Shown piece by piece: positions 1-64,000 of a stretch of 64,000 nucleotides of DNA. Under the pieces are notes generated by a model. The model made no database searches. It had not been told where the DNA came from and was given only the letters and a program-made list of their open reading frames with translations. Each line of letters begins with the position of its first letter. Positions within the stretch are counted from its first letter, which is position 1. The position numbers were made by a program, and so were the translations under genes. The stretch covers positions 552,969 through 616,968 of the forward strand of contig CAVQAC010000019.1 of assembly GCA_963710365.1 (NCBI GenBank), read 5' to 3'. This DNA comes from an uncultured Planctomycetales bacterium (GTDB taxonomy: Bacteria > Planctomycetota > Planctomycetia > Pirellulales > PNKZ01).

Positions 1-236
1 TCTTTAGCCATCCTGTTGCGTCGCGCGCAACTGTCCGGCGCATCCTCAACGAACGGCGGCCGTCGCAGTTGTTTCGATGGCTTCGTAGAGCCGCGTCGAT
101 TCTGGCCGTTTGGGTGTGTTTACCCTATGCAAGCGATCGCCCGCCGCTAAAACGCTTGGTCCACACGCAGCGGATCGAGTAGATTCGTACGCATGGGATT
201 TGTTCGACAGGCGAACACAACAAATGGGGGCGGCGC

Positions 237-1522
237 GTGCGCTGGGGGTCGCGACTGCTGAAACCATTGGGCAAGGCTTTAGCCGCCGACGCCGACTTGG
301 AAGAGTTGCTCGGCGGAGTCAAAGATTGCCAGCTCAAAACGGCCAACGAGGCGCTGGCCGTTTGTGCGTTGTTGCGCACGTTTCCGCGGGCGACGGGCAG
401 CTACGGGCTTTTTCACTCGTCGCTGCGTGATGTAGCCGGCTTTTTCCAACAGGTCGAAAGCCAGGCGGCATTCGATGTCCTCAAGGAACTGGGCGTTCCC
501 GAGCTGTGCCGCATTTACCGATCGCTGGCTGCTTCCAAGGATGAGGACGTCCAAGGTGATCTGCTGTTCGTATTGAAGATCCTCACCTTCTACTGGCATG
601 ACGAGGGGACCAAATGTGTGATCGAGGCTGCACGTCGCGGCATCCGCTCGGATGGTTGGTTGTGGGAGGTGATCCTTCAGTCTTTCGACAAGGACCATGG
701 GCATTCACAATACGTCATGCACGCGCTCGCCGACCCGCTGCCGGAAGGTTTCATTGCGATTGCGCTCGTCGATGCAGCGAACAGGCTGGCTGACCAGGGA
801 GTTGCCTTTCCGCATCCGTTCGACAGCGCCGCGGGAACCGCTCGACTCAAGCAATGGCTGACCGGCGACAATCCAGATAAATACAGCTACGCGAATAGTG
901 CAACGCTCGCTCTGCCTTATCTGACACGGCAAGAGCGCGACGAACTACTGTCGATCGCCTGCGTGCATCCTAGTGCTCACGTGCAGATCGCTGCGGGCTG
1001 GGTAGGCGGCAAGCTCGGGCGGCCGGCCGGTATCGAACTATTGGCCCATTGGTGTCTCGACGTACGATATTCAACCCATGCCGCGAAGCTGTTGGCCGAG
1101 TTGCAGGCGCCGACGCGATACCTGCGCGAGCTCGCGAGCCAGAATTCGAGGCGATGGCCGAGATGTGCAACTGGCTTGCGCATCCCAATGAATTTTCCCG
1201 ACCTCCCGATGGCATCGAACTATTCGACCGACGAACGCTGTACTGGCCGCCCACCAACGATGCCCGAACCGTGTGGCTGTTCAAATACCGGTACGAGCCA
1301 ACGGGAGACGAGAAGGAGGACGTCGGGCTCGGCATGGTGGGTGGCTCGACAACCTTCGCCTTGTTCGGCGATACGAACCCCGACATGAAGCCTTTGGATG
1401 CCTACGCTCTGCACTGTTGTTTCGAACTCGATTTCAACGCGGACAAGCGTGCGCCCAAGAAACGATCGATTGCCGCGGGACTCAAGCTGCTGCGAAAGCA
1501 CAATCCCCAGCTAGCGGATTGA
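237..1522 (+). pseudogene. conserved hypothetical protein split over two frames (one frame break about 1100-1140)
   Basis: ORF 237-1388 (GTG start) reads as plausible protein to about ..THAAKLLAEL and then degenerates (QNSRRWPRCATGLRIPMNF). The overlapping ORF 1049-1522 becomes protein-like exactly there (EPEFEAMAEMCNWLAHPNEF...KLLRKHNPQLAD). No family recognised. Confidence 0.45.
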
Positions 1523-1544
1523 CGGCGCCCCCATTCACCCGAAC

Positions 1545-3409
1545 TCACGCCGAGTCGAGGATCTTCATGTTCGGGCAGATTTCCGCCAATTGCTGTTCCA
1601 TGTAGCGGATGATCTGGGCGCTGGTCTGCATCCGCAACACGCGTTGCAAGATCTGCTCGCTGTGCGCCACGGTCAAATGGCTCACTAGCTCTTTGATGAT
1701 CGGCACGAAGGCCGGGCTCATGCTGAAGCTGCGCAGCCCCATGCCGAACAGCAGCACGCACACCCGCGGGGCCGCGGCAATTTCGCCGCACAGCGTCACC
1801 GACTTGCCGGCCGCCCGGCTGTGCTTGATCACGGAATCGAGCACGTGAATTACCGCCGGGCTCAACGGCTCGCAAAGATGGCTGACCTTCGGGTTGTCGC
1901 GGTCGGCCGCCATCAGATACTGCACCAGATCGTTCGAGCCGATGGAAACGAAATCGGAAACGGTCAACAACGAGTCGATCGAAACGGCCGCCGCCGGCAC
2001 TTCGATCATCATGCCGATCGGCACTTCGGCAAACGGCTTGCCCTCGGTCTTGAGTTGCCGGGCTGCACGGCGTACCAGCCCGCGGACCTTGCGCATTTCC
2101 TCGAGCGTGGTGATCATCGGAAACATCAACCGCACGCTGTTGGGCTGTCCATCGTCGCTATGCGAGGCTCGCAGCACCGCGCGAATCTGCGTGACGAAGA
2201 ATGCCGGATGCTCGAACGACAGGCGGATTGAGCGCCAGCCCATGAAGGGATTGGCCTCGCGGCTATGGCCCAGATACGGAATCGTCTTGTCGCCGCCCAG
2301 ATCGAGCGTGCGAATCGTGATTCGCCGCCCTGGACTGGCGGCGATGATCGCGCGATACGTGTCGACCTGCTCTTCTTCGTCCGGAACATCGGGATGCGTG
2401 AGGAACAGGTATTCGGTGCGATACAGACCAACGCCCGTGGCGCCCATGCCGCACGGCCGCTCTGCGCGTCGCCAATGCGGCTGATGTTGGCCAGCAGTTC
2501 GACATGTTCGCCGTCGGCCGAGATCGCCGGCTGGTCGCGATTCTCGGCCAGGGCGTCTTTCAGATCGACGAACTCGCGTTGCAGCTTACGGTAGGCGGTG
2601 AGTGTTTCGTAGTCGGGATTCACCAGCACGTGCCCTTCCCGGCCGTCGACGACGACCGTGTCGCCGTTGCTGACGTCGTGCAGGATGCCCGGCACGCCGG
2701 AGACCGCCGGAATCGCGCGGCTGCGGGCGAGAATTGCGGCATGGCTGGTTCGGCCGCCGGCCTGGGTGACGATGCCCGCCACTTCGCGCTCGCCGAGCGT
2801 GATCACGTGCGACGGCACGAGCTCGTTGGCCACGAGAATGATCGGCCCGGGCATTGCGTCGGAATAGGGTTGAAGCACCTGCGACAGGTGGCCGCTGAGA
2901 CGGATGATCACGTCGCGGACGTCGGCCAGCCGCTCTCTGAGGTATTCGTCCTGGGTGCGACTGAACAGCTCGGTGTATTGGGCCAGCAATCGCTGCAGGG
3001 CTGTCTGGGCCGTCTGTCGCGAGTCGACGATCCAGGTTCGAACCTTGGCCGTGAATGCCGGATCCTTCAGGATCGATTCGTGGACGTGAAAGATGGCGGC
3101 TTGTTCATGGCCGACTTGCGATTCGACCTTGGCTGCCAGCGCCCGTAGATCGGCCGCGGTCTTTTCGCGGGCCTGATCGTACTGAGTCAACTCACCCAAA
3201 ATCTGCTGATCGTCGAGCGGGCGTTTCTCGTCGCCTATGAAGATCTCGTGAATGCAATAGGCCTGGCCAATGGCCACGCCAGGCGACACGGCCAAACCAC
3301 GGTGTAAGACGAGCGGCTGACTCTTGGCCGATCGGCGTTTGTCGCTCGCCGCCGGCGCAGCGGCCGAGGGGCGTTCGGCCGGCGACGGTGATTTATCGGT
3401 AAAAGGCAT
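1545..3409 (-). pseudogene. ptsI: phosphoenolpyruvate-protein phosphotransferase (PTS enzyme I), one frame break about 2449
   Basis: The N-terminal piece (frame of ORF 2126-3409) carries the phosphohistidine region GIVTQAGGRTSHAAILARSRAIPAV. The C-terminal piece (ORF 1545-2447) carries the PEP-utilising barrel motifs GVGLYRTEYLF, IGSNDLVQY and LCGEIA. The join ..IGDAQSGRAA / MGATGVGLYRTE needs a 1-nt correction. Confidence 0.9.
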
Positions 3410-3489
3410 GCCTTGTTCCGGCCCACGAGCAGGCTATCACGGCGTGTCGCACTCTGCGTGCCGCGCCTCCGTTGTACCCTGCCGCCCGA

Positions 3490-6190: not shown

Positions 6191-6200
6191 TTCCGGTGAA

Positions 6201-6300: not shown

Positions 6301-7678
6301 TGCTTGGCTTCTTCGGGCGCAACCGGCCGGAGCCGCTGCATCTCGACTTTGAAGTCGCCCAGACTGGGCCAGCGCAAGCGGCGATCGAGATCGACTTCGG
6401 CCACGGCGATCGTTCCCCACACGTCGGCCTGGGCCAGCGGCTGACCGTCGTGGCCGTAGATGGCCGAGATCATCCACTTGGCCGCGGCGTCGGTGTAGGT
6501 GCTGGAAATCACGTACACGTGGTTCTCACAAGCCCGCGCGCGCCCAATAGCGGATTGCAGCCCGCCACGGGCCAGGCAATCACTTCAGCGCCGTGGAACG
6601 TCAACTGCCGGGCCACCTCGGGATAGAAGCCATCGTAGCAGATCATCATTCCAACTTTGCCGAAACGAGCCTCGAAGACAGGATACTCGTGCCCTGGCTG
6701 CAAGCCCGATTCCACTTCGCCGCGCGGCAACGTGACCTTGCGGTACTTGCCCACCAACGCACCGTCGGGGCCGATCAGGGCTGCCGTGTTGTAGATCAGG
6801 TGCCCGTCGCGCTCGGTCAAACCCGCCACGATGTACATATCGTACTTCTTGGCCAACCCGCCGAAATAACGCGTCGAGGGCCCCGGTATGGGTTCGGCAA
6901 CATCGACCAGCTCCTTGCCGGTTCCGTACCAGGTGAGCGACTCGGGCAGAACGATCAGATCGACCTTCTGTTTGGCGGCTTCTTGAATGAATGGCTCGAA
7001 CAGGCGGCAATTTCCTTCGGGCGTCTTGTCGGCACTCTTGGGCCGCAGATGCACGGTGGCTAGCCGAACGTGGCGGCCGGCCGGAGCCGATGTCTCCTGC
7101 AGCGAAAGGCCCGAGTACTCGACACGTCCGGGCGTCCAGATCAGATAAAGCTCGATGATCGCCCGCGCGGCCTTGGTGGGAACGTGATACGTGTCGGACA
7201 GTTCGGTCCAACCACGTGAGTCGGCCGTTTTGTCGGTGGGATACTCGGGCTCGGCTCGCGGTTTAGGCGAAGCGTTATAATGGACTGTGGGGCCTGGCTC
7301 GTCATGATTGACGGCGCGGCCTTTCTCGTCGCGCCACTCGATGCGCACGTAAGCCGAACGGCGCGGCACTTCGACTCCTGTGGTCTTGCGCAGCACCGAG
7401 AAGCGATAGCTCTTGCCGCCCGTCACCGGCACCGTCGCCTGCCACCAACCGTGAGCCCCTTCCAGACCGGCGGCATCGAGCACCAGGCTGCCTTGCCCAT
7501 CGACGCCGCCCGGGACGAAGCTGGCCTTTGGTCGGATTTCATCGCGCGGAGCCTCGGCCGTCCACTGATAACCGCGATAGTTCACCGGCTCGCCGGCGAG
7601 CGCCGACCCCGTCACACATGAAGATAGAGCCGCGATGATGGCGACAATCGCGGATCGGGAACGCGGGGATGTATTCAT
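6297..7678 (-). pseudogene. secreted carbon-nitrogen hydrolase (nitrilase-superfamily) protein with N-terminal extra domain, one frame break about 6520-6535
   Basis: Signal-like N-terminus MNTSPRSRSAIVAIIAALSS. The C-N hydrolase core has DLIVLPES (Glu), GKYRKVTLP (Lys) and MMICYDGFYPE (Cys). The C-terminal continuation [13 protein letters not shown]...[10 protein letters not shown] lies in the frame of ORF 6297-6518. Confidence 0.75.
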
Positions 7679-8460: not shown

Positions 8461-9436
8461 ATGAACCGTTTATGCTTTTGGTTCGTGCTGATTGCCTGTT
8501 TCTGCGATTCGTTCTCGACGTTTTCCCAAACGCCGACGCGTAAGCCGACGGTGTGGATGTGCCCACCGGGATTTGACGGCGGCAAGCATTTTGCCGAGCT
8601 GTTCGAAAAGCCCGACGAGTGGCAGCAAACCCGTAAGGCGATCGACGTGCTGGGCTATGCCGACCTGAACTTCAAGAAGCACTTCAGCGACGAACAGTTG
8701 CAGGCCTGGCTTCCCAAATTGAACGAGTGGGGCATCAAGCTCGGGCTCGAAGTCGGCGCCATCAAGGCTTGGGGCCAGAACCGGTGAAAAAGCGTTCCAG
8801 GCCGAGCAGCCAATCTGGCAGCGGATCGAGCGGCTCGGGGGCAAGATTCATTCGATCGCCATGGATGAGCCGCTGTGTTGCTGCCGCAAGGAGATCCACC
8901 AGCCCGACGACTATGCCGTCGCGCGAAACGGCCAATTACATCGCCCTGGTGCGAAAGCATTATCCGCAGATGCTGATCGGCGAGATCGAGCCGTATCCAT
9001 TTCTTTCGCTTGGACGAGCACATCGCCTGGATCGAGGCGTTGGAAAAACGCCTGGCCGAATTGCAAGTTCGCGGCTTGGACTTTTATCGGCTGGACGTGA
9101 ATTGGGTGGAATTCAACGCGCAAAGCCGCGGCATCGTGGCGCGAAGTCCGCAAGCTGGAGCAGTACTGCCGCCGGCGGAAGCTGCCGTTCAGTCTGATCT
9201 ATTGGGCCTCGGGCTATCCGGCGCTCGAGCGTCGCGGGCTGGCCGACGATGCGGCCTCGTACGTTTCGATCATGCAGCAAGGCTACGATTACGCGCTGGT
9301 CGACGGCTCGCCGGATCAGATCGTGGTGCAAAGTTGGATCAATGCGCCAAGCCGCAGCGTGCCGGAAACGGTCGACTTCACTTTCGCTCGCACGGTGCTC
9401 GACTTTACGCAGCGTTTCGCGCGGCCGAAAAAATAG
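8461..9436 (+). pseudogene. secreted hypothetical protein, at least 4 frame breaks (about 8780, 8925, 9005, 9130)
   Basis: Signal peptide MNRLCFWFVLIACFCDSFSTFSQ. Protein-like sequence continues by hopping frames: ..LEVGAIKAWGQ / TGEKAFQAEQPIWQRIERLGGKIHSIAMDEPL..DDYAV / ETANYIALVRKHYPQMLIGEIEPYPFLSL / DEHIAWIEALEKRLAELQVRGLDFYRLDVNWVEFNAQSRG / WREVRKLEQYCRRRKLPFSLIYWASGYPALERRGL...TQRFARPKK, with a stop at 9434-9436. Confidence 0.5.
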
Positions 9437-10212
9437 CGCTGGCCGAAGCCGCGTGGGGTATTCGCCCTACTCATTCGTGATCGGGTGTTGAGGTCGGGTT
9501 ATAATCGCGTTGGGTTGCACTTCGCTGTGAATGAGGCCGCGATGACGACGCACGAGAATTGCCCGCGATAACCGAGGTGATTGCCTACGGCAGCGCTGAG
9601 TATACCGTCGAGCTGGTCATTGACCTCCAAGAGCTCTTGTGCAGACAGTTCCGCCTGTGGCGAATATTGCTCGAATCCCACGCCGTTGACGACTTGATCC
9701 TCATTTATCCCGATTGTGTACGTAATAACGACGCCAGTCCCGGCGAACCTTTGGCCAACACGCTGGCGAGGGTCAACGCGCACGCACAGGCCAGCAAGAG
9801 ACTCTTCAGCCGATATTCGATCATCACCAATCCTGACTACTACCAGTCAACTGAGCCTCCGCGGTTTTGCGAGGCCAACGTCGCTTACAACGCGGAGACC
9901 GCCGAATGCGATCCAGGTTGGCCAAGATTCAATACGGTCGCCGAACCACCTGAGCTGACGACCGACGAATACCTTGAGATCGAGAACGATCTAGTCCCCG
10001 CGTTGGAACGTTATGGGCATGTCGTTACAAAAAGCGACCTCTCCGATACGTCGAAAGAGAAGCTCCATGCCCTCTGGTTGCTCCGCACCTCCTGGATGCA
10101 ATGGGACCGCACAAGGATTCTGGTCAAATACGGAAACCAAGAGTTTTCAGACGGCCTGATTCGAGATATTCAGTCGGCACTGCAAAACTGGCCGCTGTGG
10201 CGCGTGGCGCTA

Positions 10213-11388
10213 TAGTGTCCTGAGTTATAAATTCGCTGAAATAGTCTTGCGCCTGGCCGCGGGCCGTGTAGGCTTTCTCGAAAGGAGAAAGCCGATGGCT
10301 ATGGGACGACCGAAAGCGGAGTTGGTTTTGAGCGACGAGGAGCGGCAAGCGCTGGAACGCTGGGCGCGGCGGCCGAAGAGCAGTCAGCAACTGGCGCTGA
10401 GGTCGCGAATTGTATTGAGTTGTGGTGACGGTCGCACGAACCAGCAAGTGGCCAAAGAGTTGCGGATCAGCATGCCGACCGTGGGCAAGTGGCGAGCTCG
10501 CTTCGTGGCGCGGCGTTTGGACGGGTTGTTGGATGAACCACGGCCGGGCACGCCGCGCACGATTAGCGACGAACAGGTTGAAAAAGTGATCACCAAAACG
10601 TTGGAAACGAAGCCGCAGCACGCGACCCACTGGAGCACTCGCGGCATGGCGAAGGCCACGGGCCTGAGCCAGACGGCGATCTCCCGGATTTGGCGAGCTT
10701 TCAACCTTCAACCGCACCGCACCGAAACGTTCAAGCTGTCGACCGACCCGCAATTCATCGAAAAAGTCCGCGATGTCGTCGGCTTGTACATGAATCCGCC
10801 CGACCGGGCCATCGTCTTGTGCGTCGACGAAAAGAGCCAAGTGCAGGCTTTGGATCGCAGCCAACCGCTGCTGCCGATGAGTTCTGGGCAAGTGGAACGG
10901 CATACGCACGACTACGTTCGCTATGGAACTACCTCGTTGTTTGCGGCTTTGGAAGTTGCGACCGGAAAGGTGATCGGTAACTGTCAACAACAGCATCGGC
11001 ATCAGGAGTTCATCAAGTTCCTGGAACTGATCGACGAGCAGATTCCGGAAGTGCCTGGGATTGAAATTCACTTGGTCATGGACAACTACGCCACGCACAA
11101 AACGCCCAAGGTCAAACGTTGGTTCGCTCGGCGTCCGCGTTATCATGTGCATTTCATTCCCACGAGTTCATCGTGGCTGAATCAGGTCGAGCGATTCTTT
11201 GCTGAAATCACGGAGAAACGCATTCGTCGCGGCGCGTTCCGTAGCGTGCAAGCCCTTCGCAAGGCGATCGAAGGATACCTGGACCACCACAACCGCAAAG
11301 CACGGCCGTTCGTCTGGACCGCCGACGCTGATTTGATTCTCGCCCGCGTTAAAAAGGTTTGTAAACGGATTAACAACTCAGGACACTA
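10213..11388 (+). mobile_element. IS630-family insertion sequence (boundaries +/-2 nt because of TA duplication)
   Basis: Terminal inverted repeats TAGTGTCCTGAGTT (10213-10226) and AACTCAGGACACTA (11375-11388). Removing the element and one TA restores ..GCG CTA GAC GCT.. (A L D A), i.e. a CTAG target. A single intact DDE transposase ORF fills the element. Confidence 0.9.
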
Positions 11389-11389
11389 G
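10295..11389 (+). CDS. IS630-family transposase
   Basis: AGGAG 8 nt before the ATG at 10295 (MAMGRPKAEL..). It has an N-terminal HTH region, then LCVDEKSQVQAL, HLVMDNYATHKT and SSSWLNQVERFF (DDE triad context). The stop codon lies in the right terminal repeat. No frame break in 1.1 kb. Confidence 0.9.
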   Translation: MAMGRPKAELVLSDEERQALERWARRPKSSQQLALRSRIVLSCGDGRTNQQVAKELRISMPTVGKWRARFVARRLDGLLDEPRPGTPRTISDEQVEKVITKTLETKPQHATHWSTRGMAKATGLSQTAISRIWRAFNLQPHRTETFKLSTDPQFIEKVRDVVGLYMNPPDRAIVLCVDEKSQVQALDRSQPLLPMSSGQVERHTHDYVRYGTTSLFAALEVATGKVIGNCQQQHRHQEFIKFLELIDEQIPEVPGIEIHLVMDNYATHKTPKVKRWFARRPRYHVHFIPTSSSWLNQVERFFAEITEKRIRRGAFRSVQALRKAIEGYLDHHNRKARPFVWTADADLILARVKKVCKRINNSGH

Positions 11390-11497
11390 ACGCTGAAGAC
11401 ATACGAGACGTGCGGTTCGTTTATCCGGACTTCATTCGCTGAGTCGCAAACGCTGACGGATCCTAGTGACCCGAGAACACCGAGACGGGTGATGGAT

Positions 11498-12461
11498 ATG
11501 GCGAGCCATGGAAACTGCCCGCGGTTCCCTTCCCTAGCGGAATGTGCATTACGCTACAACGTTTCCGAATCGGAGCGAGAATCCGACGAATTAATTCACC
11601 AGAGCGAGCCCGATCTGCCGCCGATTAGCGACGTCGAGATTTCGCTGATTTATCGGCTGCCACAACCGGTCATCGACAAACATAACCGTGCGCACGGTTT
11701 CACGGATCAAGGGGCCGATTATTACTACCTGGTTGGCGACCGTTGGGAAGATGACCGGACGTTTAACGTCACGGCATACGGCAATGCCGAATACACCGCC
11801 GAGCTTGTGCTTGATCTCCAACTCCTGCTGCGCCGAAAACTGTCGCTTTGGCGAATCGCACTCTTGGCCAATGTGCTCGATGACCGTATTTACGTCTATC
11901 CGGAGTGCGTGCGGAACAACGACGCGACGTTAGACGAGCCCCTTGCGGTGACCCTGCGGCGAGTGAACGCCCATGAACGGGCATGGCGACAACTAGTTAA
12001 TCGCTATTCAGTCGCCGAACAACCTGGATATAGTCAGCGGACCTCAGTGCCCCCGCGGCTTTGTGAAACAAAAGTCGCATACAATGCTAATGAGGCCGAG
12101 TGTGCTCCTGCGTGGCCTCGATTCAACACCGTTTCCGACCCGCCGGAACTTACCACCGTGGAATATCTCGATCTCGACGGTGAGCTAGTCCGCTCGCTTG
12201 AGCAATACGGGCCGGTCGTTTGCAAGAATCACTTATCGGATACATCCAAGCAAAGGCTCAATGCGCATCTGGCTGGTCCGAACGACAGTTATGCAGTGGG
12301 ATCGGACGCGAATCCTGATCAGGTATGGCGAGGAACGATCCACCCCGGAGTTGATTCGCGAGATCCAAGGCGCCCTGCAATGCTGGCCGCTGTGGCGCGT
12401 GGCCTTGGACGCCGAGGATGAACGCGACGTGAGGTTCGTTTATCCGGAATTCATTCGGTAG
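11498..12461 (+). pseudogene. paralogue B of the tandem two-domain family, one frame break about 12265
   Basis: MASHGNCPRFPSLAECALRYNVSESERE... is colinear with paralogue C up to ..SDTSKQRLNA. The rest (LWLVRTTVMQWDRTRILIRYGEERSTPELIREIQGALQCWPLWRVALDAEDERDVRFVYPEFIR) lies in the frame of ORF 12198-12461. Confidence 0.8.
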
Positions 12462-12513
12462 AATGGCCCGTGGGAAGTAGCCGAGACTTTACTTCACCGA
12501 AACCGAGCCCTGC

Positions 12514-14575: not shown

Positions 14576-14592
14576 TCCGCTGAATTCGGACA

Positions 14593-25835: not shown

Positions 25836-25869
25836 TCGCCCACGCCGCCGTGGTTGTGGGTTTGAAATC

Positions 25870-48759: not shown

Positions 48760-49832
<1,073 letters not shown>

Positions 49833-53589: not shown

Positions 53590-53696
53590 ACGGCCGTTCG
53601 CGCCGCGGATGAACAACTAAAGAGCTCCAAACTACCGGCAAGCTTGCGCATGCCGCTCGCCACTGCCTACTGCCCTCTGCCTACTACTAAAAGCCC

Positions 53697-54918
53697 ATGC
53701 CTCGCCTGATCAGCTTCTTCGGCCTGTGGGTGTTGATCGGCCTGGCCTGGCTGCTCAGTTCGCACAAGAGCCGGGTTAGCCTGCGACTGATTGCCAGCGG
53801 CGTGCTGCTGCAATTGGTGTTCGCTCTGCTGGTGTTGAAGACCGGACCCGGCCGGGCCGTCTTCGACCGGTTCAATGACGGATTCCATCTGCTGCTGAGC
53901 TTCGTCCGTGCGGGAAACGATTTCGTCTTCGGCGACCTGCTGGAAAAGCACCCCAACATTTTCGCCTTCAGCGTGCTGCCGAGCATCATCTTCTTCTCGG
54001 CCCTGATGTCGCTGCTGTACCATTTCGGCGTGATGCAGCGCCTGGTCCAAGTTATGGCGATCGTCATGCAGCGGACCATGGGCACGTCCGGCGCCGAGAG
54101 CCTGTCGACGGCCGCCAACATCTTCGTCGGCCCGACCGAAGCTCCGCTCGTCATTCGTCCCTATCTGCACGAGCTGACCGAATCGGAACTGATGGCCGTG
54201 ATGGTGGGCGGCTTTGCCACCGTCGCCGGCGGCGTGATGGCAGCCTACGTGCAGATGGGCATCGACGCCGGCCACCTGGCGACGGCCTCGGTAATTTCGG
54301 CGCCGGCCGCGCTGCGTGATCTCCAAGGTCATGCAGCCCGAAGTCGGTCAGCCGCAGACCCTCGGCCGGGCCAAACTCGATGTCGAGCGGCCCGCCGTCA
54401 ATATGCTCGAAGCCATCACTATGGGCGCAACCGATGGGCTGAAGCTGGCCCTGAACGTGGCGGCCATGCTGATCGCCTTCCTGGCGATGTTGGCCATGTT
54501 GAAGCATGCAATCGCCTGGACCGGATCGTGCTTCGGCTACCACTGGACGCTCGATGCCATGCTGGGCTATTGCTTTGCTCCTCTGGCCTGGCTGATCGGG
54601 GTGGAAAGCAAAGATTGCCTCGATGTGGGCGAACTGCTGGGCTTGCGCATGGCAGCCAACGAATTCCTGGCCTATGAGCGGCTGGCCGAATGGGCCAAGC
54701 CTGATTCGACGGTGCATCTCAGCGCCCGCAGCCACACGCTGGCCACTTATGCTCTGTGCGGGTTCGCCAACTTCGGCTCGATCGGCGTGACGATCGGCGG
54801 CATCGGCCTGTTGGTCCCCGAGCGCCAGGCCGACTTGGCGCGGCTCGGCTTGCGAGCCATGCTCGGCGGCACGCTGGCCTGCTCGATGACCGCCTGCATC
54901 GCGGGAATGTTGGTGTAA
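53697..54918 (+). pseudogene. nupC: NupC/CNT-family nucleoside transporter, one frame break about 54315
   Basis: The N-terminal piece has AFSVLPSIIFFSALMSLLYHFGVMQ, ESLSTAANIFVGPTEAPLVIRPY and GGFATVAGGVMAAY. The join ..VISAPAAL / VISKVMQPE.. leads to the C-terminal piece YALCGFANFGSIGVTIGGIG. Confidence 0.88.
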
Positions 54919-55000
54919 AGGCAGATTACTCCGGGCGGGATCGCGGGGTGTTTCACCCCATGCTGAACTCCATTTCGCGATTGGCAGGGCTTCTCAGCCT

Positions 55001-55248: not shown

Positions 55249-56253
55249 ATGGCCACTAAATCGGCGACGATCGTTGCGCTGGAAGAACTGGAGAATGGGC
55301 AGGAGGCTGATATCTTTCTGCTGATGACGGCCAAGGAAGAGTTGACCACGCGCGACGGCAAGCCGTACTTCAAAGTCGGCTTTCGCGGCGCGACGCGGCA
55401 GGTGAGTTTTCCAATCTGGGCCGAGAGCACCTGGTCCGAAGCCTGCCGCAAGTCGTGGGCGGTCGGCGCGTTCTACAAAGTCCGAGCCGTCTATCGCGAC
55501 ACCAACTTCGGTCCGCAACTCGATATCCGCAAGATCCGTGAGGTCGTCGACGCCGATGCGGCCGACGGCTTCGAGCCGAACGTGTTTCTGCCTCGCTCGC
55601 GGTTCGATGCGGCTGAGATGTTTGCCGAACTGGTGTCGATCGCCCGCACGCACATTGCCGATGCCGAACTGCGTGCGCTGGTTGAACGGATCATGGAAGC
55701 CAACCGCTCACAGCTTCTGGAACTTCCGGCCGCGACGCGGAATCATCACTGCTACGTCGGCGGTTATTTGGAGCACGTCTTGAGCGTCACGCGGACGGCG
55801 CTCTACCTGGCCGAGAAATACGACGACTACTATCCCGACCTGCAGCCGCGGCTCAATCGCGACGTGCTGGTGGCCGGCGCGATACTCCATGACATCGGCA
55901 AGCTACGCGAAATCGCCTGGCAACCCGAGGGGGCGGCCTATCTGCCGGCCGGCGACCTGGTCGGCCATATCCTGCAAGGACGCGACATCGTTCGCGAAGC
56001 GGCAGCCGGCCGAAAGATCGATCCCGAGCTACTGTTGCGGCTGGAGCACGTGATCATCTCGCATCAGCGTTTGCCCGAATGGGGTTCGCCCAAGCCACCC
56101 ATGACGCCCGAGGCACTCTTGGTCCACTACGCCGACGACATCGACGCAAAATATCACATGATGTACGTCGCCTTGCGCGACGACACGAACACGGGCCATC
56201 TGACGAGCAAGCAGAACCAGCTCTATCAGAAGATCTACCGCGGATCGACGTAG
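55249..56253 (+). CDS. YhaM-like OB-fold + HD-domain (exo)ribonuclease/phosphohydrolase
   Basis: The N-terminal OB-like segment is DIFLLMTAKEELTTRDGKPYFKVGFRG. The HD domain has HHCYVGGYLEHVLSV and AILHDIGKLRE. Confidence 0.7.
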   Translation: MATKSATIVALEELENGQEADIFLLMTAKEELTTRDGKPYFKVGFRGATRQVSFPIWAESTWSEACRKSWAVGAFYKVRAVYRDTNFGPQLDIRKIREVVDADAADGFEPNVFLPRSRFDAAEMFAELVSIARTHIADAELRALVERIMEANRSQLLELPAATRNHHCYVGGYLEHVLSVTRTALYLAEKYDDYYPDLQPRLNRDVLVAGAILHDIGKLREIAWQPEGAAYLPAGDLVGHILQGRDIVREAAAGRKIDPELLLRLEHVIISHQRLPEWGSPKPPMTPEALLVHYADDIDAKYHMMYVALRDDTNTGHLTSKQNQLYQKIYRGST

Positions 56254-56296
56254 TTGGCCTCGAAATCGTGGCCCGAAGAGACCGGGGCGTCCTGAG

Positions 56297-56368: not shown

Positions 56369-57657
56369 GATACGTTGAACGAGTGCGTCTTCCGACGCTC
56401 GTTCGATCCGAGCCCCCAACCGCGCGAGCTTTTCTTCCAAACGCTGGTAGCCGCGGTCGAGATGATGGATGCGGCGGACGATCGTTTCCCCGTCGGCCGC
56501 CAACCCGGCCAGAACCAACGCCGCGCTTGCACGCAAGTCGCACGCCGTCACGTTCGCTCCGTGCAACCGAGCAACGCCGTCGACCATAGCCCGATCGCCG
56601 GCATGATCGATCTGGGCGCCAAATCGCCGGAGCTGATCGACGTGCCGAAAACGTTCCGGAAAGACGCAGTCGCGAATCGTGCTGCGGCCCGAGGCTACGC
56701 AGGCCAGCGCCATGAACTGGGCCTGCACGTCGGTCGGCACGCCGGGATAGGGAAGCGCGGCCAGTTCGATCGGTCGCAAGCCGGCCGGTCGAGGCGACGC
56801 TGACCGTATCGGTTTCAGTCTGCGACGGCCAGCCCGGCCCGATCGAGTTCGGCCAACACCGCGGCCAGATGCTCGGGCGCAACGCCGGTCACCTTCACGC
56901 TCCCGCCGGTAATGGCCGCGGCCACGCAGCAGCGTGGCGGTTTCGATCCGATCGGGAATAATGGAGTACGAACCGCCGGCGAGTCGCTCGACGCCCAGGA
57001 TCTCGAGCGTCGAAGTGCCCAGGCCGTCGATGCGCGCGCCAAGTCCGATTTAAGAAGTTGCCCAGGTCGACGATCTCGGGCTCGGTTGCGGCGCCGGTGA
57101 TGATCGTCCGCCCGCGGGCCGAGACCGCGGCGCAGAGCACATTGGCCGTTCCGGTAACCGTCGGCCCGTGCGGGCCGGCCAGATGAATTCGAGTGCCGCG
57201 CAACTGAGCGGCGCGGCCCACGACGTGGCCTTGCTGGATTCGCAGATCGGCACCGAAGCGCGGCCAGGCCGTGCAGGTGCAAATCGATCGGCCGCTCGCC
57301 GATCTGACAACCGCCGGGCAGCGGCACCACGGCCCTGCCACGCCGGGCCAGCAACGGGCCGAGCACGCAGAAGCTGGCCCGCATCTGCTGCACCAATTCG
57401 TAGTCGGCAAAGATTCGTTGCGGGGCGACGGTGGCAATCTGCAGCCGATCGTCCGGCCGGCGTTTGACTTCGACCCCCAAATAGCCGAGCAGCAGCGAAA
57501 GCGTGTCGACGTCGGCCAAATGCGGCACGTGCTCGAGCGTCACCGGCTCCGAAGCCAGGATCGACGCGGCCATGATCGGCAGCGCGGCGTTTTTCGCGCC
57601 ACTGGCCGCCACCGTGCCTGCAAGGGGAATCCCTCCCCGAATCCGCAGTAGGTCCAT
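56352..57657 (-). pseudogene. murA: UDP-N-acetylglucosamine 1-carboxyvinyltransferase MurA, at least 5 frame breaks; 3' end uncertain
   Basis: MDLLRIRGGIPLAGTVAASGAKNAALPIMAASIL.. (start 57657). Successive pieces lie in alternating frames: ..[20 protein letters not shown] / [34 protein letters not shown] / [30 protein letters not shown] / [21 protein letters not shown] / TETDTVSV / PIELAALPYPGVPTDVQAQFMALA...DRGYQRLEEKLARLGARIER. Confidence 0.88.
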
Positions 57658-57805
57658 CCGTGAACCGCTCTGATAAGTCCGCAATCATGTCGCCGCAAGT
57701 CGAGCGAGCATTCTAGCCGATCAATGCCGGCCGTGCCCAGGCGATGTTGGGGGGCAGTAACTAGACCAATGGCAGGGAGCATGCTCCAAATAGCAGAGGC
57801 TGTTG

Positions 57806-58700
57806 CTAGCAGCGGCGGGCCTGGATCACCCGGGCGTGACCGGCCAGATCTTTGATCGTCGGCGAAAGCTCAAACTGTCCCTGAGGCTTCGACCAGGCGG
57901 CGAACGTCGGACTCGATGGCCGGCCCGATCTCGACCAGCAGCCAGCCGCCGGGCACGAGCCGCTCGGCAGCCTGCGGAATCAGCCGCTCGATGATCTCGG
58001 TCCCGCTGCGCGCCGGCTTCCAGCGCAATCCGCGGCTCGAACTTGCGCACGTCGACCATCAGAGCATCCATTTCCGACGATTTGACGTACGGCGGGTTGC
58101 TGACGACGAAGTCGAACCGCCGATCCGCCGCAACGCTCGCGAACAGATCGCTTTCGACGAACTCGATTTTGTCCGCCACGCCGTGGTCCTGGGCATTTTC
58201 GCGAGCCACGGCCAGTGCCGCCGGGCTGATGTCGATGCGCCGTGACAGCGCTGTCGGGAAGTTCTGGCGCGGCACAAACGGCCAGGATGCCGCTGCCGGT
58301 GCCGACGTCGGCGATTCGCAGCGGGTCGCTCGACGATCTGGCAGCCTGCTGTTTCGCCAGATCCAACAGCCGGATCAGCAAGAACTCCGTCTCGGGCCGC
58401 GGGATGAGCACGTCGGGCGTGACGCGAAACGCAGAGCGAATAGAACTCGCGCCGGCCGACCAGGTAGGCCACCGGCATGCCCTGGGCCCGTTGGCGCACG
58501 AACTCGCGGAACTTTTGCCGCACGGCTTCGGGGGGCTGCTCGTCGAACGTGGTGTAGAGCTGAATTCGCGGGCAGCCCAGGGCATGGGCCAGCAGCACTT
58601 CGGCGTCGAGCCGCGGGCTTTCGGCGTCGCGCTGGCGCAAGAAGTCGGTCGTCCAGGCAAGCAGCCGGCCGACCGTCCAAACTTCTTCGGTCTGGGCCAT
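57806..58700 (-). pseudogene. prmC: release-factor glutamine N5-methyltransferase PrmC (HemK), about 4 frame breaks
   Basis: [35 protein letters not shown] / [30 protein letters not shown] / ..[25 protein letters not shown] (NPPY) ..FEPRIALEAG / GTEIIERLIPQAAERLVPGGWLLVEIG / FELSPTIKDLAGHARVIQARRC, with a stop at 57806-57808. Confidence 0.85.
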
Positions 58701-58720
58701 GGCCAGCTTCCCCCGCGACG

Positions 58721-59797
58721 TCAATCGATGGTGTCCATGGCGCTGCGTTGCTGCTGACGATCGTATTCGATCAAGCGCGTCGATGACCGGTCCGACGTTG
58801 CCCGACAGGATATTGTCGAGCTTGTAAAGCGTCAGGTTGATGCGGTGATCGGTAAGCCGATTTTCCGGAAAGTTGTAGGTGCGAATCCGCTGGCTGCGGT
58901 CGCCCGAGCCGACCAGCGTCTTGCGGTCCTGGGCCCGCTTGGCCTGCTCCTCGGCCCGCTTCTGCTCGTACAGCCGTGTCTTGAGCACGCGCAAGCGCCC
59001 GGGCGAAGTTCTTGTGCTGGCTCTTTTCGTCCTGGCACTGGACGACGATGTTGGTTTCGTAGTGCGTCAGCCGCACGGCCGATTGCGTCTTGTTGACGTG
59101 CTGGCCGCCGGGGCCGCTGGCCGAGAACAGATCCTTGCGGTAATCCTCGGGCTTGAGATCGATTTCGACGTCTTCCGGCTCGGGCAACACGGCCACGGTG
59201 GCGGCCGAGGTGTGGATGCGGCCCTTGGCTTCGGTTTCGGGAACGCGCTGCACGCGATGTCCGCCGCTTTCGTATTGCAGCGCGCGGTACACGCCTTCGC
59301 CTTCGATGCCCAGGATCAGCTCCTTGAAGCCGCCCAGCTCGGTGGAGTTCATGTCGAGCACTTCGACCTTCCAGCCCTTGGCTCTCGCAGTAGTGCTTGT
59401 ACATGTCGTACAAGTCGCGGGCAAACAGCGCGGCCTCTTCGCCGCCGGTGCCGGCGCGGATTTCCATCACGCAACGCGAGCGGTTGGCGTCTTCGCCGCC
59501 GATGGTCATGTCCAGCAGTTCGTTCCAGTACACCTCGCGCTGGGCCTTGAGCTCGGGCAATTCGGCCTCGGCCAGTTCGCGCATTTCCGGGTCGTCGCCC
59601 TCGATCATCTTCTGGGTTTCGCCGATCTGCTGATTCAGTCGCCGGAAATGGCGGTACTTGGTGGCCACTTTGGCCAGTTGACCGTGTTCGCGCGCAACGG
59701 CAGCCAGTTTGGACGAATTGGCCAACACGACGGGATCGGAAAGCTGACTTTCCAGCTCCTCGAACCGTGCCAGTTGTTGATCGAGCAGTTCCTTCAT
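58721..59797 (-). pseudogene. prfA: peptide chain release factor 1, three frame breaks (about 59395, about 58990, about 58770)
   Basis: [44 protein letters not shown] / [59 protein letters not shown] (GGQ) / [42 protein letters not shown] / [16 protein letters not shown], with a stop at 58721-58723. Confidence 0.92.
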
Positions 59798-60245: not shown

Positions 60246-60350
60246 GGCGAGACCGAATTCCTTGCCGCAGCCGGGCTTGCGTAAATCACCGACCGAGCAT
60301 CAAGCATGGCCCAATAACGGGCAGATCCAATCGAATAAGAACCTAGAATC

Positions 60351-61096
60351 TTAGCAACCGGGCCATCGGTAGGCAAGAGGCTTTGGCTGGCAATGCCGGC
60401 CCGGGCAGCGGGGGCCTTCGGCCGCAAATACTGTGGGAATAGTTCGATGACCCTCGTGCTGGAACTGCTTGGCGAGGCGTTTTGCGTCCTCGCCGAGCCG
60501 CTTTTTGAATGGCTCGTTGGGGCCTGCGTCGGCATTTGGCAGGCGGCCGTCGAAGTCGTCAGGTACCGGCGGCTGGAACGCGACGAAAAGAGCCGGAAGC
60601 AACAGAAATAGTCCAAACACCGCGATTAGCCAGCGAGTGCAATGACGAATAACGCTACGGTCGCCGAACATGCGCCGAGCAGCCCGGCTGCCGCGCTCCA
60701 CCAGACGCTGCGACGCGGGGCGCCGATGCAACCTCCCACCAATAAACCCGTGACTGCGACAATGGGAGGCGCCCAGTCGCCCAACCGCTGAAACCCGTAG
60801 TACAAAAGCAGCGCAAGTGCGGCCACGGCGGCGACGGAAGCGGTAATCGCGCCCCACCAGAACTTGCCTTGAAGTGCGCCGACAGATCCTCCCAGCAAAA
60901 AACTCGGCAGTGCAAGTCGGGCGATGAAGCCTAATGGAATTAGGTCGCGATGCGTATGGCAGCGCACGGTGCCGCCGACTCCGGACACCACGCCTGCGAT
61001 GGCGCATAACAGCGATATGGCAATGCGTCTTAACATGACACGGACTTGAGGCCTCATCGCGGCGTAGCGCCTAAAACCACTCATTGTGTCGCCCAT
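60351..61096 (-). pseudogene. hypothetical polytopic membrane protein, probably one gene with a frame break about 60628
   Basis: ORF 60626-61096 (4-5 hydrophobic helices) ends ..ATVALFVIALAG. The overlapping frame continues the helix (LIAVFGLFLLLPALFVAF) into a soluble tail (QPPVPDDFDGRLPNADAGPNEPFKKRLGEDAKRLAKQFQ). The 3' end is poorly defined. Confidence 0.35.
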
Positions 61097-61169
61097 GCTT
61101 CTCTAGCGTTTGCACCCGCAACAGATCGCGGGCCTGCCTAAGCAGTCGTAATGCCGCTGTAACAACTGG

Positions 61170-61561
61170 TCATCCAGCCTTCTCGCGGCAGAACGCCGCG
61201 ACCTGCGATTTTCCGGCGTCACCGCGAGCCACGGCCAGAGTAATTTCGACCAAACCATCTTCATCGGCGACAATCTGGACGTCGTTCATCGCGAGGAAGA
61301 TGATCGCCGAAGCGGCGCCGTTCGCTTGTTCCCATCGACGAATGGATGGTTCTGAACAACGTGGTACAGATACGCGCCGCCATCTCGAACAGATCTCTGT
61401 GCAACAGTTCGCCTGCGAACGAAGCCTGCGGCATTCCCAGCGCCGATTGCAGCAGACCCACGTCGCGCACACCGTCACCACCGCCGTAATGCTCGATCAA
61501 AGCTGCGGTGAATACGCAGCACGTGATCGAGATCCAAGAACTGGGGCTGCACGGCAGGCAC
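61170..61561 (-). pseudogene. doc: Doc (Fic-fold) toxin, three frame breaks (about 61500, 61380, 61320)
   Basis: A GTG at 61561 follows immediately after the antitoxin TAG. The pieces are VPAVQPQFLDLDHVLRIHRS / LIEHYGGGDGVRDVGLLQSALGMPQASFAGELLHRDLFEMAAR / YLYHVVQNHPFVDGNKRT (Fic/Doc motif HxFxDGNKR) / GAASAIIFLAMNDVQIVADEDGLVEITLAVARGDAGKSQVAAFCREKAG. Confidence 0.8.
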
Positions 61562-61789
61562 CTATTCCGCAAGGCGCTTCATCGCACGACCGAACCGCTT
61601 GTGAACCATCTCCAGCGCCTCTTGGAATTTCTTGTCTTCCGAGCGTTCACGCACGGGCGACAACACCAGACATTGCCCGTCGGTGATGATTTCAAACGGC
61701 GTGTCTGGCGAAACTCGCAGGATTTCGAGAATCGGCTTTTCAATCACCAGTGCGTAGCTGTTGCCATGCTTCGTCAACGTTTTGATCAT
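61562..61789 (-). CDS. AbrB/SpoVT-fold antitoxin (Phd/MazE-like partner of Doc)
   Basis: MIKTLTKHGNSYALVIEKPILEILRVSPDTPFEIITDGQCLVLSP is a typical swapped-hairpin AbrB/MazE N-terminal domain. It is 75 aa and directly abuts doc. Confidence 0.8.
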   Translation of the reverse strand: MIKTLTKHGNSYALVIEKPILEILRVSPDTPFEIITDGQCLVLSPVRERSEDKKFQEALEMVHKRFGRAMKRLAE

Positions 61790-61899
61790 GGCGATACTCC
61801 AGGGTCGTTGCCACTTAATACCAACATTGTAGCACCGAAACCCCGCGCGTGCGATGCCGATGGCATCGAATATTTTATGCCCTCCGCTCTATTCTCTCT

Positions 61900-63459
61900 C
61901 TAGCTTTTGCGCCGCAGCAGATTGCCGGGACGCTGTGGGCCGGTGGTTTGCTCGTACGCCTTGCGCGCCTCGGCGGCTTGCCCCAGGGCCTCGTACGAAC
62001 GGCCCAGGTTGTAGCGGGCCCCTTCGGTCCAAGGGCCATCAGGCGTGGCCTTGAGCGTGCGCTCGCGGAAGTAGTCGATCGCGACCTCGAACAGCCCTCG
62101 ATCAAAGGACACCAGTCCCAACCAGTAGCTGGCGTCGCGCTTGGCGGTTTCCAGGTTCTGCTCCGCGTCGGCTGAAAGCTTGCCCTGGGCGCGGGCTTCG
62201 TGCAGCGCTGCCTCGGCGGGGCGGCACTCCTGGTATTCGTGAATCGCGTTCCGCTCGCCCGTGTACTTGCCCATCAACTGCAGCACGCGGGCTTGCCAGA
62301 GTTTGGCCGGCGGATCGATGAAAGGGCTCAGCTCGCGAATCGAGGCCTGCCGCCCACGCGAATCGGCCGCTTGCTTGCGGGCGGCTCGCTGATAGGGCAA
62401 CGTCCACAACCGCGTGCCAGCTATAAGCGGATTCTCCTTCAGCCGATTGGCAACCTCGCTCGGATCGGTCGAGAGCACCAATCGGCTGTCGCCGGCCAGA
62501 TCGAGTTCCATGAGCCGGCCACGTTCGGTCAGGTACAACGGCGAAGCTTCGACCAGCGCCACGACGCGGCTGAATTGGTCCGGCTTGAAGCGGTAGGGAT
62601 GCTCGGCGTCGAGCTTCCACTCGGCAAAAACCCGTTCGTCGGCGACAGCCTGGGCGAGCGTCGCCACGCCCTGCCCGCCGGGGCTGGGGATCGGCAGCCC
62701 ATACACCGGATCGAACAGGTACAGAACTTTTTCCAGGAGCACAGCCGGCAGCCAGGCATCGGGGAGCTCGCCCCGCTCGGCGGCCGGACCGGCCTGGGCC
62801 AGCAGTACGGCATCGAGCCCTTGCTGGCGGGCAAGCAACAGCCAAACCCAAGCCCGATCGACCGCTTCGCCGCGGCCAAAAAGCAGCGTCTCCCAAGGGC
62901 GATGCGGCCAGGCGACGGATTCTTCCGACCGTACCGGTTCGAGCTGAATGTTGCGAATCGTCCAATCAAACAGCAGCCGAGCCCGGGTGAGATCGTCCAG
63001 TTCGCGGCCAACCGCCGCGCGGGCCACATCGCGAATCCAAACGGCCTCCTGCAATGTCAGGCCGTCTTCGCGATCGAACTTGAACTGCGCCAGGTTCTCC
63101 AGCGACGGCAGCTTACGAACGTCGGGGGGCAACTCGGCCACCAGCGGATCCACCTGCCAGCCCGCGATCGGCTTGCGGAGCGCGATCCACTGGTTCAATC
63201 GGCCGAGGATCTGCGGCAGCACATCGTTGGGGTTGTAGCGATCGACTTCATTCAACAACCCGACGGCATTGACGAACAGCTCTTCGACGATCTCCTCGCG
63301 AGCCGCGACTCCCGACGCGGCGTCGACTTGCATGCTCGAACCCGAGCAGCCGACGAGCGGGAGAAGCGGGACGAAAAAAAGGAGTAAAAGCGGAAAGCTG
63401 AAAGCGGAAAGCCGACGAAGCCGAACGCTAAAACGCGGCGAGGAGTTCATACGATGCAT
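61900..63459 (-). CDS. lipoprotein with C-terminal TPR-like repeats (central region possibly transglutaminase-like, unverified)
   Basis: Signal and lipobox ..LLLLFFVPLLPLVGCSG. The C-terminus has ASYWLGLVSFDRGLFEVAIDYFRE and ARYNLGRSYEALGQAAEARKAYEQ. The 519-aa frame is intact. Confidence 0.55.
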   Translation of the reverse strand: MHRMNSSPRFSVRLRRLSAFSFPLLLLFFVPLLPLVGCSGSSMQVDAASGVAAREEIVEELFVNAVGLLNEVDRYNPNDVLPQILGRLNQWIALRKPIAGWQVDPLVAELPPDVRKLPSLENLAQFKFDREDGLTLQEAVWIRDVARAAVGRELDDLTRARLLFDWTIRNIQLEPVRSEESVAWPHRPWETLLFGRGEAVDRAWVWLLLARQQGLDAVLLAQAGPAAERGELPDAWLPAVLLEKVLYLFDPVYGLPIPSPGGQGVATLAQAVADERVFAEWKLDAEHPYRFKPDQFSRVVALVEASPLYLTERGRLMELDLAGDSRLVLSTDPSEVANRLKENPLIAGTRLWTLPYQRAARKQAADSRGRQASIRELSPFIDPPAKLWQARVLQLMGKYTGERNAIHEYQECRPAEAALHEARAQGKLSADAEQNLETAKRDASYWLGLVSFDRGLFEVAIDYFRERTLKATPDGPWTEGARYNLGRSYEALGQAAEARKAYEQTTGPQRPGNLLRRKS

Positions 63460-63469
63460 GCTTCGGCTT

Positions 63470-64000
63470 TCAGTTTTCCGCTTTTGTTTCTAGCTGCTCG
63501 ACGGTTTCACGGATGGCGAGGATTCTCCGCAACAACGCGGGGAATTCTGCCAGCGGAACCATGTTCGGGCCGTCGCTCGGCGAACTGTCCGGGTCGGGAT
63601 GGGTCTCGAAAAACAGCCCGTCGACGCCGATCGCGGTCGCTGCTCGAGCCAGCGGCTCGACCATGGCCCGATTGCCGCCGGTGGTCGAACCCAAACCGCC
63701 CGGCTCCTGCACGCTGTGGGTGGCGTCGAAGATTACGGGCACGCCAAACGATTGCATCTGCGGAATGGCCCGCATGTCGTTCACCAGCCGGCCGTAGCCG
63801 AAGAACGTGCCGCGTTCGCACAATAGAATTCGCGAACAGCCGGACGCTTGCAGCTTGGCGACAACGTGGCGCATGTCCCAGGGGGCGAGGAACTGCCCCT
63901 TTTTGACATTCACGACCCGTCCCGTGGCGGCGGCCGCCACCAGCAGATCGGTTTGCCGGGCAAGGAAGGCCGGAATCTGCAACACTTCGCAAACTTCGGC
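63470..64000 (-). CDS. kdsA: 3-deoxy-8-phosphooctulonate synthase KdsA (partial; 5' end beyond window)
   Basis: [67 protein letters not shown]. The ORF is open to the window edge. Confidence 0.92.

Follow-up and report, generated by a model that had tools for sequence, protein, structure and literature searches.

Reading-frame breaks along the window

The window, i.e., the entire stretch of 64,000 nucleotides analysed here, carries among other genes ptsI, a large number of fli and flh genes, flgE, mdh, nupC, murA, prmC, prfA and a doc toxin gene, as well as an IS transposase at 10160–11386. In total, about 42 frame breaks were counted in about 24 genes, of which roughly 24 are of the +1 type and 18 of the −1 or −2 type. 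This bears out the preliminary description of the sequence, which had claimed about 40 breaks in about 24 genes, and the breaks were found at or near the places named there. Its numbers for individual genes also held in nearly every case (three breaks in prfA, four in prmC, five in murA, three in doc), except that flhA contains two breaks instead of one.

Breaks were located by frameshift-aware protein-to-DNA alignment against orthologues in prfA, prmC, murA, the 8461–9436 gene, fliG, flhB, flhA, fliA, flhF, fliK, fliJ, mdh, the C-N hydrolase gene, a TPR gene and at the junction of a histidine kinase gene with the EBP gene. For ptsI, nupC and fliP, the basis is complementary partial Pfam matches in adjoining ORF pieces, and for the esterase gene and fliR one truncated Pfam domain match each. 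The breaks in doc and the 60351–61096 gene were found by reading the frames, while that of the 237–1522 gene was placed solely by a reference-free Viterbi frame model based on codon usage. This model is weak: fliK and several low-bias genes escape it, and it does not separate gene boundaries from breaks. It served as support only. The closest long relative for 5.5–24.6 kb is L042. Breaks backed by L042 alone (7066, 15037/15072, 21605, 22368 and the 2-nt gaps at 9180–9381) were left out of the count, since L042 is also a long-read contig, in which flhF and fliA are split, and such breaks are either ambiguous or L042's own. No Pfam matches were obtained for the 237–1522 and 8461–9436 genes, the paralogues at 9.5–14.4 kb, the 60351–61096 gene or the doc pieces, and Rfam and tRNA scans found nothing.

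All broken genes described in the following lie on the reverse strand except where the forward strand is named. In the 237–1522 gene (forward strand), one −1 break falls in the overlap of two ORF pieces (974–1385), at about 1140 according to the frame model. A −1 break in ptsI lies within 2465–2632, with the frame model switching at 2448; the PEP-utilisers_N and mobile domains are encoded in ORF 2129–3433, and PEP-utilizers_C is matched from profile position 32 in ORF 1548–2585. The C-N hydrolase gene has a 1-nt deletion at 6539–6541 (GG to G in GCGCGG), called against the intact L042 orthologue (93% amino acid identity). A first cluster of insertions is found in the 8461–9436 gene (forward strand), which has at least four breaks: in comparison with an intact 324-aa orthologue in L042, four +1 frame steps occur within 8763–9133, with inserted bases at about 8779/8769 (combined with the loss of 1 nt near 8764, a net +1), 8920, 8999 and 9133.

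Relative to the intact L043 proteins FliA (259 aa) and FlhF (391 aa), fliA carries a +1-type change of GG to GGG at 14990–14992 and flhF a 1-nt deletion outside a homopolymer at 18000–18003. The two breaks of flhA are a 1-nt deletion at 19909 (GGG to GG), for which the alignment evidence includes 118 references, and a 1-nt insertion at 20169 (C to CC, codon 11), as judged against P0122, P0124 and L042. The latter had been overlooked in the preliminary description. The resulting gene call (18098–19849) encodes a truncated FlhA of 584 aa, compared to 697–704 aa in orthologues, and exactly this translation exists as a public record (P0121) from a 1,700,615-nt contig (NCBI/ENA). In flhB, two 2-nt deletions are located 19 nt apart at 23595–23614; the reference in this case is L042 only, a long-read contig, yet its flhB is intact (360 aa). 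A weakly supported, probable −1 break near the C-terminus of fliR (23975–23979) comes from the L042 alignment, and the Pfam match to Bac_export_1 ends at position 203 of 230.

Further along, fliP has a −1 break at 25544–25572 (the frame model switches at 25571), with FliP profile positions 1–39 in ORF 25500–26081 and 31–191 in ORF 25045–25869. A +1 break in fliK at 32065–32095 is placed with an uncertainty of about ±15 nt, because the reference, the hook-length protein of L040, is only 48% identical. In fliJ, a 1-nt deletion occurs in a C/G run at 34177 (compared with L039, 96% amino acid identity, and L041). The same two relatives reveal a compensated −1/+1 pair without a stop in fliH, 22 nt apart at 36017–36039, which could represent two errors or real divergence. 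Two −1 breaks in fliG were placed against L040 FliG, at 36680 and, with agreement of the frame model, at 37321. Where the histidine kinase gene ends and the EBP gene begins, both L040 references agree on a −1 break at 42448–42461. The TPR gene shows a +1-type break at 44842–44856, supported by alignment and frame model and including a C5 run at 44842–44846, and a −1-type break at 46060–46100, placed by the frame model only. The frame model also indicates two +1 breaks in the esterase gene, near 47150 and 47233 (47150–47233), where the Abhydrolase_2 match in ORF 46808–47215 spans only profile positions 102–213. A −1 break in mdh lies at 49020 (compared with L035, 74% identity). The +1 break of nupC (forward strand) falls in 54261–54316 between Pfam pieces, the N-terminal and Gate domains being in ORF 53691–54674 and the C-terminal domain, matched from position 15 of its profile, in ORF 54295–54915. 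Finally, frame reading gives one probable −1 break in the 60351–61096 gene within the overlap of its ORF pieces (60629–61070), and reading of three frames gives three breaks (+1, −1, −1) in doc (61100–61600) around the Fic/Doc motif HPFVDGNKR at about 61348. The antitoxin-like ORF upstream of doc is intact.

Single-base insertions in murA, prmC and prfA

The largest cluster occupies 56.78–59.38 kb. It consists of five 1-base insertions in murA (56779–57258; at 57258, 57044, 56927, 56822 and 56779), four in prmC (57884–58432; at 58432, 58238, 58005 and 57884) and three in prfA (58776–59381; at 59381, 58994 and 58776). When compared to the three or four relatives covering each site, all 12 lesions are single inserted bases unique to the window. 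Those in murA have no counterpart in L044, L045 and L046, and L023 likewise lacks the insertions at 56927, 56822 and 56779. The relatives, which belong to other species (83–88% nucleotide identity to the window), show no frameshift in prfA, prmC or murA. Unique substitutions amount to 73 in the window, 81 in L044 and 74 in L046, and unique 1-nt insertions to 13, 1 and 1, respectively.

After repair of the reading frame, differences from L044 are distributed 76:34:276 over codon positions 1:2:3, and a third-position bias is present in nearly every segment between breaks. The repaired gene bodies contain no in-frame stops; the repaired PrmC retains the NPPY motif and, at 295 aa, matches the length of its closest orthologues, and the GGQ motif is still present in the repaired RF1. 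The repaired frames bear a signature of purifying selection.

These observations bear on whether the breaks reflect genuine decay, i.e., true pseudogenes in a lineage that is host-restricted or under relaxed selection. Many genes are indeed interrupted and an IS transposase is present, both of which would fit such a history. Nevertheless, we regard decay as very unlikely, for the essential genes murA, prfA and prmC are hit hardest (12 of about 42 breaks), substitutions are not in excess, divergence in the repaired frame is dominated by third positions in nearly every segment, and nonsense codons are missing from the repaired gene bodies. Moreover, no large deletions were seen in the window, no lesion is common to any relative, the genes stand in dense, normal syntenic order on a 1.7-Mb contig, and comparable lesions are confined to long-read contigs (see below).

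Another explanation accepts the frameshifts as real and has them read through, by programmed +1 ribosomal frameshifting or transcriptional slippage, to yield full-length proteins. The 12 insertions in prfA, prmC and murA all shift in the same direction (+1), which speaks for this reading. However, no motif is common to the 12 sites, which are not slippery homopolymers, and the stop of the old frame follows 5–871 nt downstream, at 10 of the 12 sites more than 140 nt away, so that no shifty stop or hungry codon exists at the sites. The extra base occurs in no relative covering the site, i.e., nothing is conserved, and −1 and −2 events are found in other genes. Read-through of this kind is, hence, extremely improbable. 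Equally little credence can be given to a free-living flagellated planctomycete whose prfA, prmC and murA carry authentic +1 breaks and are rescued by recoding that needs no motif or by correction at the RNA level. No evidence speaks for this, and the finding that such lesions are limited to long-read contigs is a strong argument to the contrary.

Distribution, sequence context and occurrence in other assemblies

The preliminary description had noted an uneven spread of the breaks, and this was corroborated: a stretch of 2.6 kb holds 12 breaks against an expected 1.7 (P ~7e-6, corrected for the number of windows), while flgE, fliF, fliI, the IS transposase gene and the HD gene at 55.2–56.3 kb have none and the genes at 50.2–53.6 kb (a TPR protein, an integrase and an epimerase) are intact. 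The EBP gene had likewise been listed as unbroken, which perhaps fails for its start, as the break near 42450 at the kinase junction may touch it.

Two breaks had been reported to lie in homopolymers and to be resolved to the nucleotide. Both runs exist (GGG at 14990–14992 and C5 at 44842–44846), and the resolution stands for fliA; for the TPR gene the break could be placed only to a range, since its sole reference is 41% identical. Homopolymer context in general showed no enrichment: of the 22 events resolved to the nucleotide, about 3–4 are in runs of at least 3 bases, which is at chance level given that about 12% of the window's bases are in such runs. Enrichment in homopolymers is typical of long-read indel artefacts, albeit not obligatory. 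A homopolymer or methylation-motif cause of the main cluster was rejected, the sites being non-repetitive and the 12 sharing no common motif. A link to GC content was rejected as well, since one cluster falls in the bin with the highest GC content and the other in a bin where it is low.

Two populations of errors can be distinguished. The first is isolated and window-wide, mostly 1-nt deletions in short G/C-rich contexts. The second forms clusters made up of 1-nt insertions only, at 8.76–9.13 kb, probably at 47.15–47.23 kb, and at 56.78–59.38 kb. Such insertion-only clusters differ from homopolymer deletion, the textbook signature of Nanopore data. For 7 of the 12 insertions of the largest cluster, the inserted base is identical to the alternative allele at a polymorphic site next to it, against an expectation of about 1.5 (p ~1e-4; n = 12 sites, with polymorphism taken from relatives of other species). 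This suggests that the sequence is a consensus of collapsed strain variants at this place.

A different technical origin is conceivable, namely very low local long-read coverage, an insertion bias of the PacBio CLR type, or mis-polishing by cross-mapping reads of other species in conserved genes. The errors are clustered and biased towards insertions, they affect conserved housekeeping genes for which metagenomes hold many relatives of 83–88% identity, and in six of the seven matches the allele is that of L045, the most distant relative. On the other hand, random errors at low coverage should also raise the numbers of substitutions and deletions, neither of which is raised, and random insertions should not favour polymorphic neighbours. 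Furthermore, the equally conserved fliI and the main body of flhA are almost clean. We therefore consider such an origin rather unlikely, though it deserves more weight than either decay or read-through.

The preliminary description had also called for a comparison with orthologues, and the lesions are absent from the intact genes of relatives. Besides the 12 clustered insertions, this applies to further breaks of the window, which are absent from L039, L040, L041, L043, L035, P0122 and P0124. A search for a same-species assembly found none, the best relatives having 86–89% nucleotide identity, and a scan of species-representative genomes with the HD protein detected no relative closer than 73% amino acid identity. 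The HD-domain gene served as a control. Among 37 orthologous loci, frameshifts (five events, all +1) are confined to L015, L016 and L020, all from long-read MAGs and either of Mb scale or named "ont"; this corresponds to 3 of 6 long-read loci versus 0 of 31 short-read loci, the platform class being judged by contig names and sizes and by PMC12313526. Similarly, L007 and L013, both long-read loci, have a frameshift in murA, and eight short-read loci have none. In L042, flhF and fliA are split at positions other than those in the window. The MFD MAGs, which are among the relatives, are Nanopore-only assemblies with one round of Medaka (PMC12313526).

Origin of the breaks and comparison with known systems

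From the comparison with relatives, we infer that the breaks are errors: with high probability, they are residual consensus indels of a long-read metagenome assembly (1-base, rarely 2-base) and not mutations of the organism. The earlier reading of assembly indels instead of decay is supported by the uniqueness of the lesions, the absence of excess substitutions, the stop-free repaired frames with their third-position bias and the recurrence in long-read contigs only, and also by the public record of the truncated FlhA, which comes from a 1.70-Mb contig. The window would stem from a contig of a Planctomycetota (Pirellulales-like) genome built from long, error-prone metagenome reads, most likely on a Nanopore-only platform. 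At the largest cluster, reads of co-occurring strains or close relatives may have been collapsed into one consensus, the polisher presumably placing both alleles side by side and thereby leaving an inserted base. Some single breaks could be genuine, e.g., those in doc, in the IS-adjacent 8461–9436 gene or in genes without a known family. Since the breaks are almost certainly consensus errors, the affected genes should not be called pseudogenes.

The finding is an artefact, of practical rather than biological import, and a caution for annotation. Without frame repair, pseudogene calls, gene counts, completeness estimates and metabolic inference from this contig will be wrong (e.g., "no MurA", "no RF1" or "non-motile"), and truncated products such as P0121 are already present in public protein collections. 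The new point is the error signature itself, i.e., clusters of 1-base insertions carrying a neighbour's alternative allele. If read data confirm it, such clusters could serve as markers of strain variation that was collapsed in unpolished long-read MAGs.

Several known systems resemble the window in part. The gene prfB (RF2) contains a programmed +1 frameshift at a CUU-UGA-type site and is, thus, also a release-factor gene needing a +1 shift for readthrough. Here, however, prfA is concerned, with three shifts, no CUU-UGA-type site and no conservation, and neighbouring unrelated genes are hit too. Pseudogenes accumulate in host-restricted bacteria, e.g., Mycobacterium leprae and recent insect symbionts, where decay is accompanied by nonsense mutations, deletions of larger size and an increase in non-synonymous change, while essential genes are spared. 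Many interrupted genes in one region are a shared feature, but none of these hallmarks of decay was seen in the window.

Gene-fragmenting indels in Nanopore assemblies are the target of frameshift-correction tools (PMC9262707; proovframe, 10.1101/2021.08.23.457338; Kastor, PMC12007338). In both cases, 1–2-nt indels split conserved genes in long-read contigs only, disappear after frame repair against orthologues, and hit essential genes as readily as others; in contrast, the largest share here consists of clusters of 1-base insertions at non-repetitive sites and not of homopolymer deletions. For the assembly of Trypanosoma brucei Lister 427, the collapse of alleles is reported to have caused INDEL errors and, with them, false frameshifts (PMC8445201). 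That organism is a diploid eukaryote whose alleles were shown from reads, whereas a second strain is suggested here by the polymorphism of other species. Nevertheless, the likeness is close: nearby haplotype variants lead to misaligned reads and false ORF-truncating indels there, and in the window 7 of 12 inserted bases equal the adjacent alternative allele.

Distribution of frame breaks over the window

The window has a G+C content of approximately 61%, and scans of the 64 kb yielded neither tRNA genes nor Rfam matches. It encodes ptsI (phosphotransferase-system enzyme I), an MFS transporter, a C-N hydrolase, an IS with a DDE_3 transposase, a large flagellar cluster reaching from fliA to a histidine kinase and a sigma-54 activator (EBP), whose gene order matches that of a 294-kb relative contig, as well as mdh, nupC, an HD-domain gene, murA-prmC-prfA-rpmE and a Doc toxin. 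All relatives of the encoded proteins belong to Planctomycetota MAGs, labeled Pirellulales, Planctomycetaceae or Thermoguttaceae.

Frame breaks were detected with a purpose-written frameshift-aware protein-to-DNA aligner, using orthologous ORFs of fetched relatives as queries. Complementary partial Pfam matches in neighboring ORF pieces, a reference-free frame model and direct frame reading provided further evidence and, like the alignments, confirmed the breaks in the sequence. All methods together gave approximately 42 breaks in the window, about 24 of the +1 type and 18 of the −1 or −2 type. The per-gene counts of the preliminary description were reproduced almost throughout, i.e., prfA (3), prmC (4), murA (5), fliG, flhB and the esterase (2 each), doc (3) and the gene at 8461–9436 (at least 4). 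Single breaks were found in ptsI, the C-N hydrolase, fliA, flhF, fliP, fliK, fliJ, mdh and nupC, at the histidine kinase/EBP junction and, with weaker evidence, in the genes at 237–1522 and 60351–61096. Two breaks lie in the TPR gene, one of them (the second) seen in the frame model only. For flhA, two breaks were found instead of the one described before, at 20169 (+1, codon 11) and 19909 (−1). The uneven distribution noted earlier was borne out, as 12 breaks fall within a 2.6-kb stretch in prfA, prmC and murA (56779–59381) where 1.7 are expected (corrected P approx. 7e-6).

In fliH, a −1/+1 pair 22 nt apart (36017–36039, minus strand) alters approximately seven codons compared to two close relatives and creates no stop; it could represent two compensating consensus errors or genuine divergence. 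A smaller insertion cluster (8.76–9.13 kb) lies directly upstream of a block (9559–13473) in which two paralogues of no known family (9559–10215 and 12514–13473, plus strand) flank an intact DDE_3/HTH transposase whose domains are IS630-like (10160–11386, plus strand). At 61100–61800 (minus strand) lies a toxin-antitoxin pair, in which an intact AbrB/SpoVT-like antitoxin ORF (MIKTLTKHGNSYALVIEKP...) precedes the Doc toxin gene, which is broken into four frame pieces.

Single-base insertions in prfA, prmC and murA

The contigs of four relatives (L044, L045, L046 and L023) carry prfA-prmC-murA without any frameshift. In a multiple alignment with relatives, the coding sequences of the three genes contain exactly 12 single-base insertions unique to the window (59381, 58994, 58776, 58432, 58238, 58005, 57884, 57258, 57044, 56927, 56822 and 56779) and no unique single-base deletions. 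None of the 12 lies inside a run of at least three bases, and just three copy a neighboring base. Programmed frameshifting at these sites is unsupported, as no motif is common to the 12 contexts and the stop of the old frame follows 5–871 nt downstream. Four more unique inserted bases occur in the prmC-murA spacer (57719–57785); thus, the process adding bases ignores coding boundaries, as a technical error would.

After repair, RF1, PrmC and MurA have gene bodies without in-frame stops and retain the GGQ and NPPY motifs. Repaired PrmC matches relatives which are 83–88% identical in amino acids and, like itself, all 295 aa long. The window has 73 unique substitutions versus 81 and 74 in its nearest relatives, but 13 unique 1-nt insertions versus one in each of them. 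Differences between the repaired frame and an intact orthologue are distributed 76:34:276 over codon positions 1:2:3, and the third-position bias is present in nearly every segment between breaks. The substitution and insertion counts, this bias and the stop-free, motif-bearing frames speak for error rather than decay. They indicate that selection acted on the uninterrupted frame until the present, which is incompatible with three to five old frameshifts per gene.

Two relatives differ here in other respects. In murA of the short-read contig L045 (ENA scaffold_43526_c1), an in-frame stop occurs without a frameshift (position 3465), and the gene is called in two parts of 150 and 313 aa; the stop is either a substitution error or a genuine nonsense variant. 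In L023 (Ga0302320_10278007, 815–1555), approximately 690 extra bases compared to the window (equivalent 56232–56256) separate the HD-domain gene from murA. They are flanked by a 25-nt direct repeat, GATCTACCGCGGATCGACGTAGTTG, which takes in the end of the HD gene, and look like an insertion with target duplication or a local duplication.

Frameshifts and sequencing technology

As a control, the intact HD-domain protein of the window was aligned to the orthologues from 37 fetched loci. Five frameshifts, all +1, were confined to three loci (L015, L016, L020) from long-read MAGs, on Mb-scale Flye-style contigs or a contig named “ont”; the other 34 had none. Of these, 31 were classed as short-read from MEGAHIT, SPAdes or JGI contig names. 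Accordingly, 3/6 long-read versus 0/31 short-read loci are affected (exact probability approx. 0.003, own calculation). Likewise, murA is frameshifted in two long-read loci (L007, L013) and in 0/8 short-read loci. In the closest long relative (L042, ENA contig_75930_np1212), flhF and fliA are split at positions differing from those in the window. The truncated FlhA of the window (18098–19849, 584 aa) exactly matches a protein recorded from a 1,700,615-nt contig (P0121, NCBI/ENA); therefore, the breaks belong to a deposited, very contiguous assembly. Some of the relatives are MFD MAGs, assembled from Nanopore reads only using metaFlye and one Medaka round, with short-read polishing unmentioned (PMC12313526).

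Uniqueness, substitutions, codon-position bias and long-read association support the assembly indels proposed initially. Based on these sequence comparisons, we conclude that the frame breaks are almost certainly a sequencing and assembly artifact and no biological feature. Individual breaks, for instance in doc or in genes without a known family, could be real, but nothing marks them out.

Sequence context and possible origin of the clusters

Homopolymers, in which two breaks had been placed earlier, are not the main context: among the 22 resolved events, approximately 3–4 occur in runs of at least three bases, a proportion close to that of all bases situated in such runs (12%). Outside the clusters, 1-nt deletions in short G/C contexts predominate among the resolved events (e.g., GG to G at 6539 and GGG to GG at 19909), with a few 1-nt insertions, whereas the clusters contain insertions only. 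In the dense cluster, the inserted base equals the relatives’ alternative allele at the adjacent column in 7/12 cases (approx. 1.5 expected at random, p approx. 1e-4), and 2/4 unique insertions in the other long-read MAGs look alike. The allele matches and the insertion-only clusters would fit a consensus in which reads of two variants were collapsed and both alleles of a SNP written side by side. Low local coverage, or cross-mapping reads of related species, are possible origins as well. Collapsed alleles, as suggested here, have previously been described as a source of false indels and frameshifts (PMC8445201).
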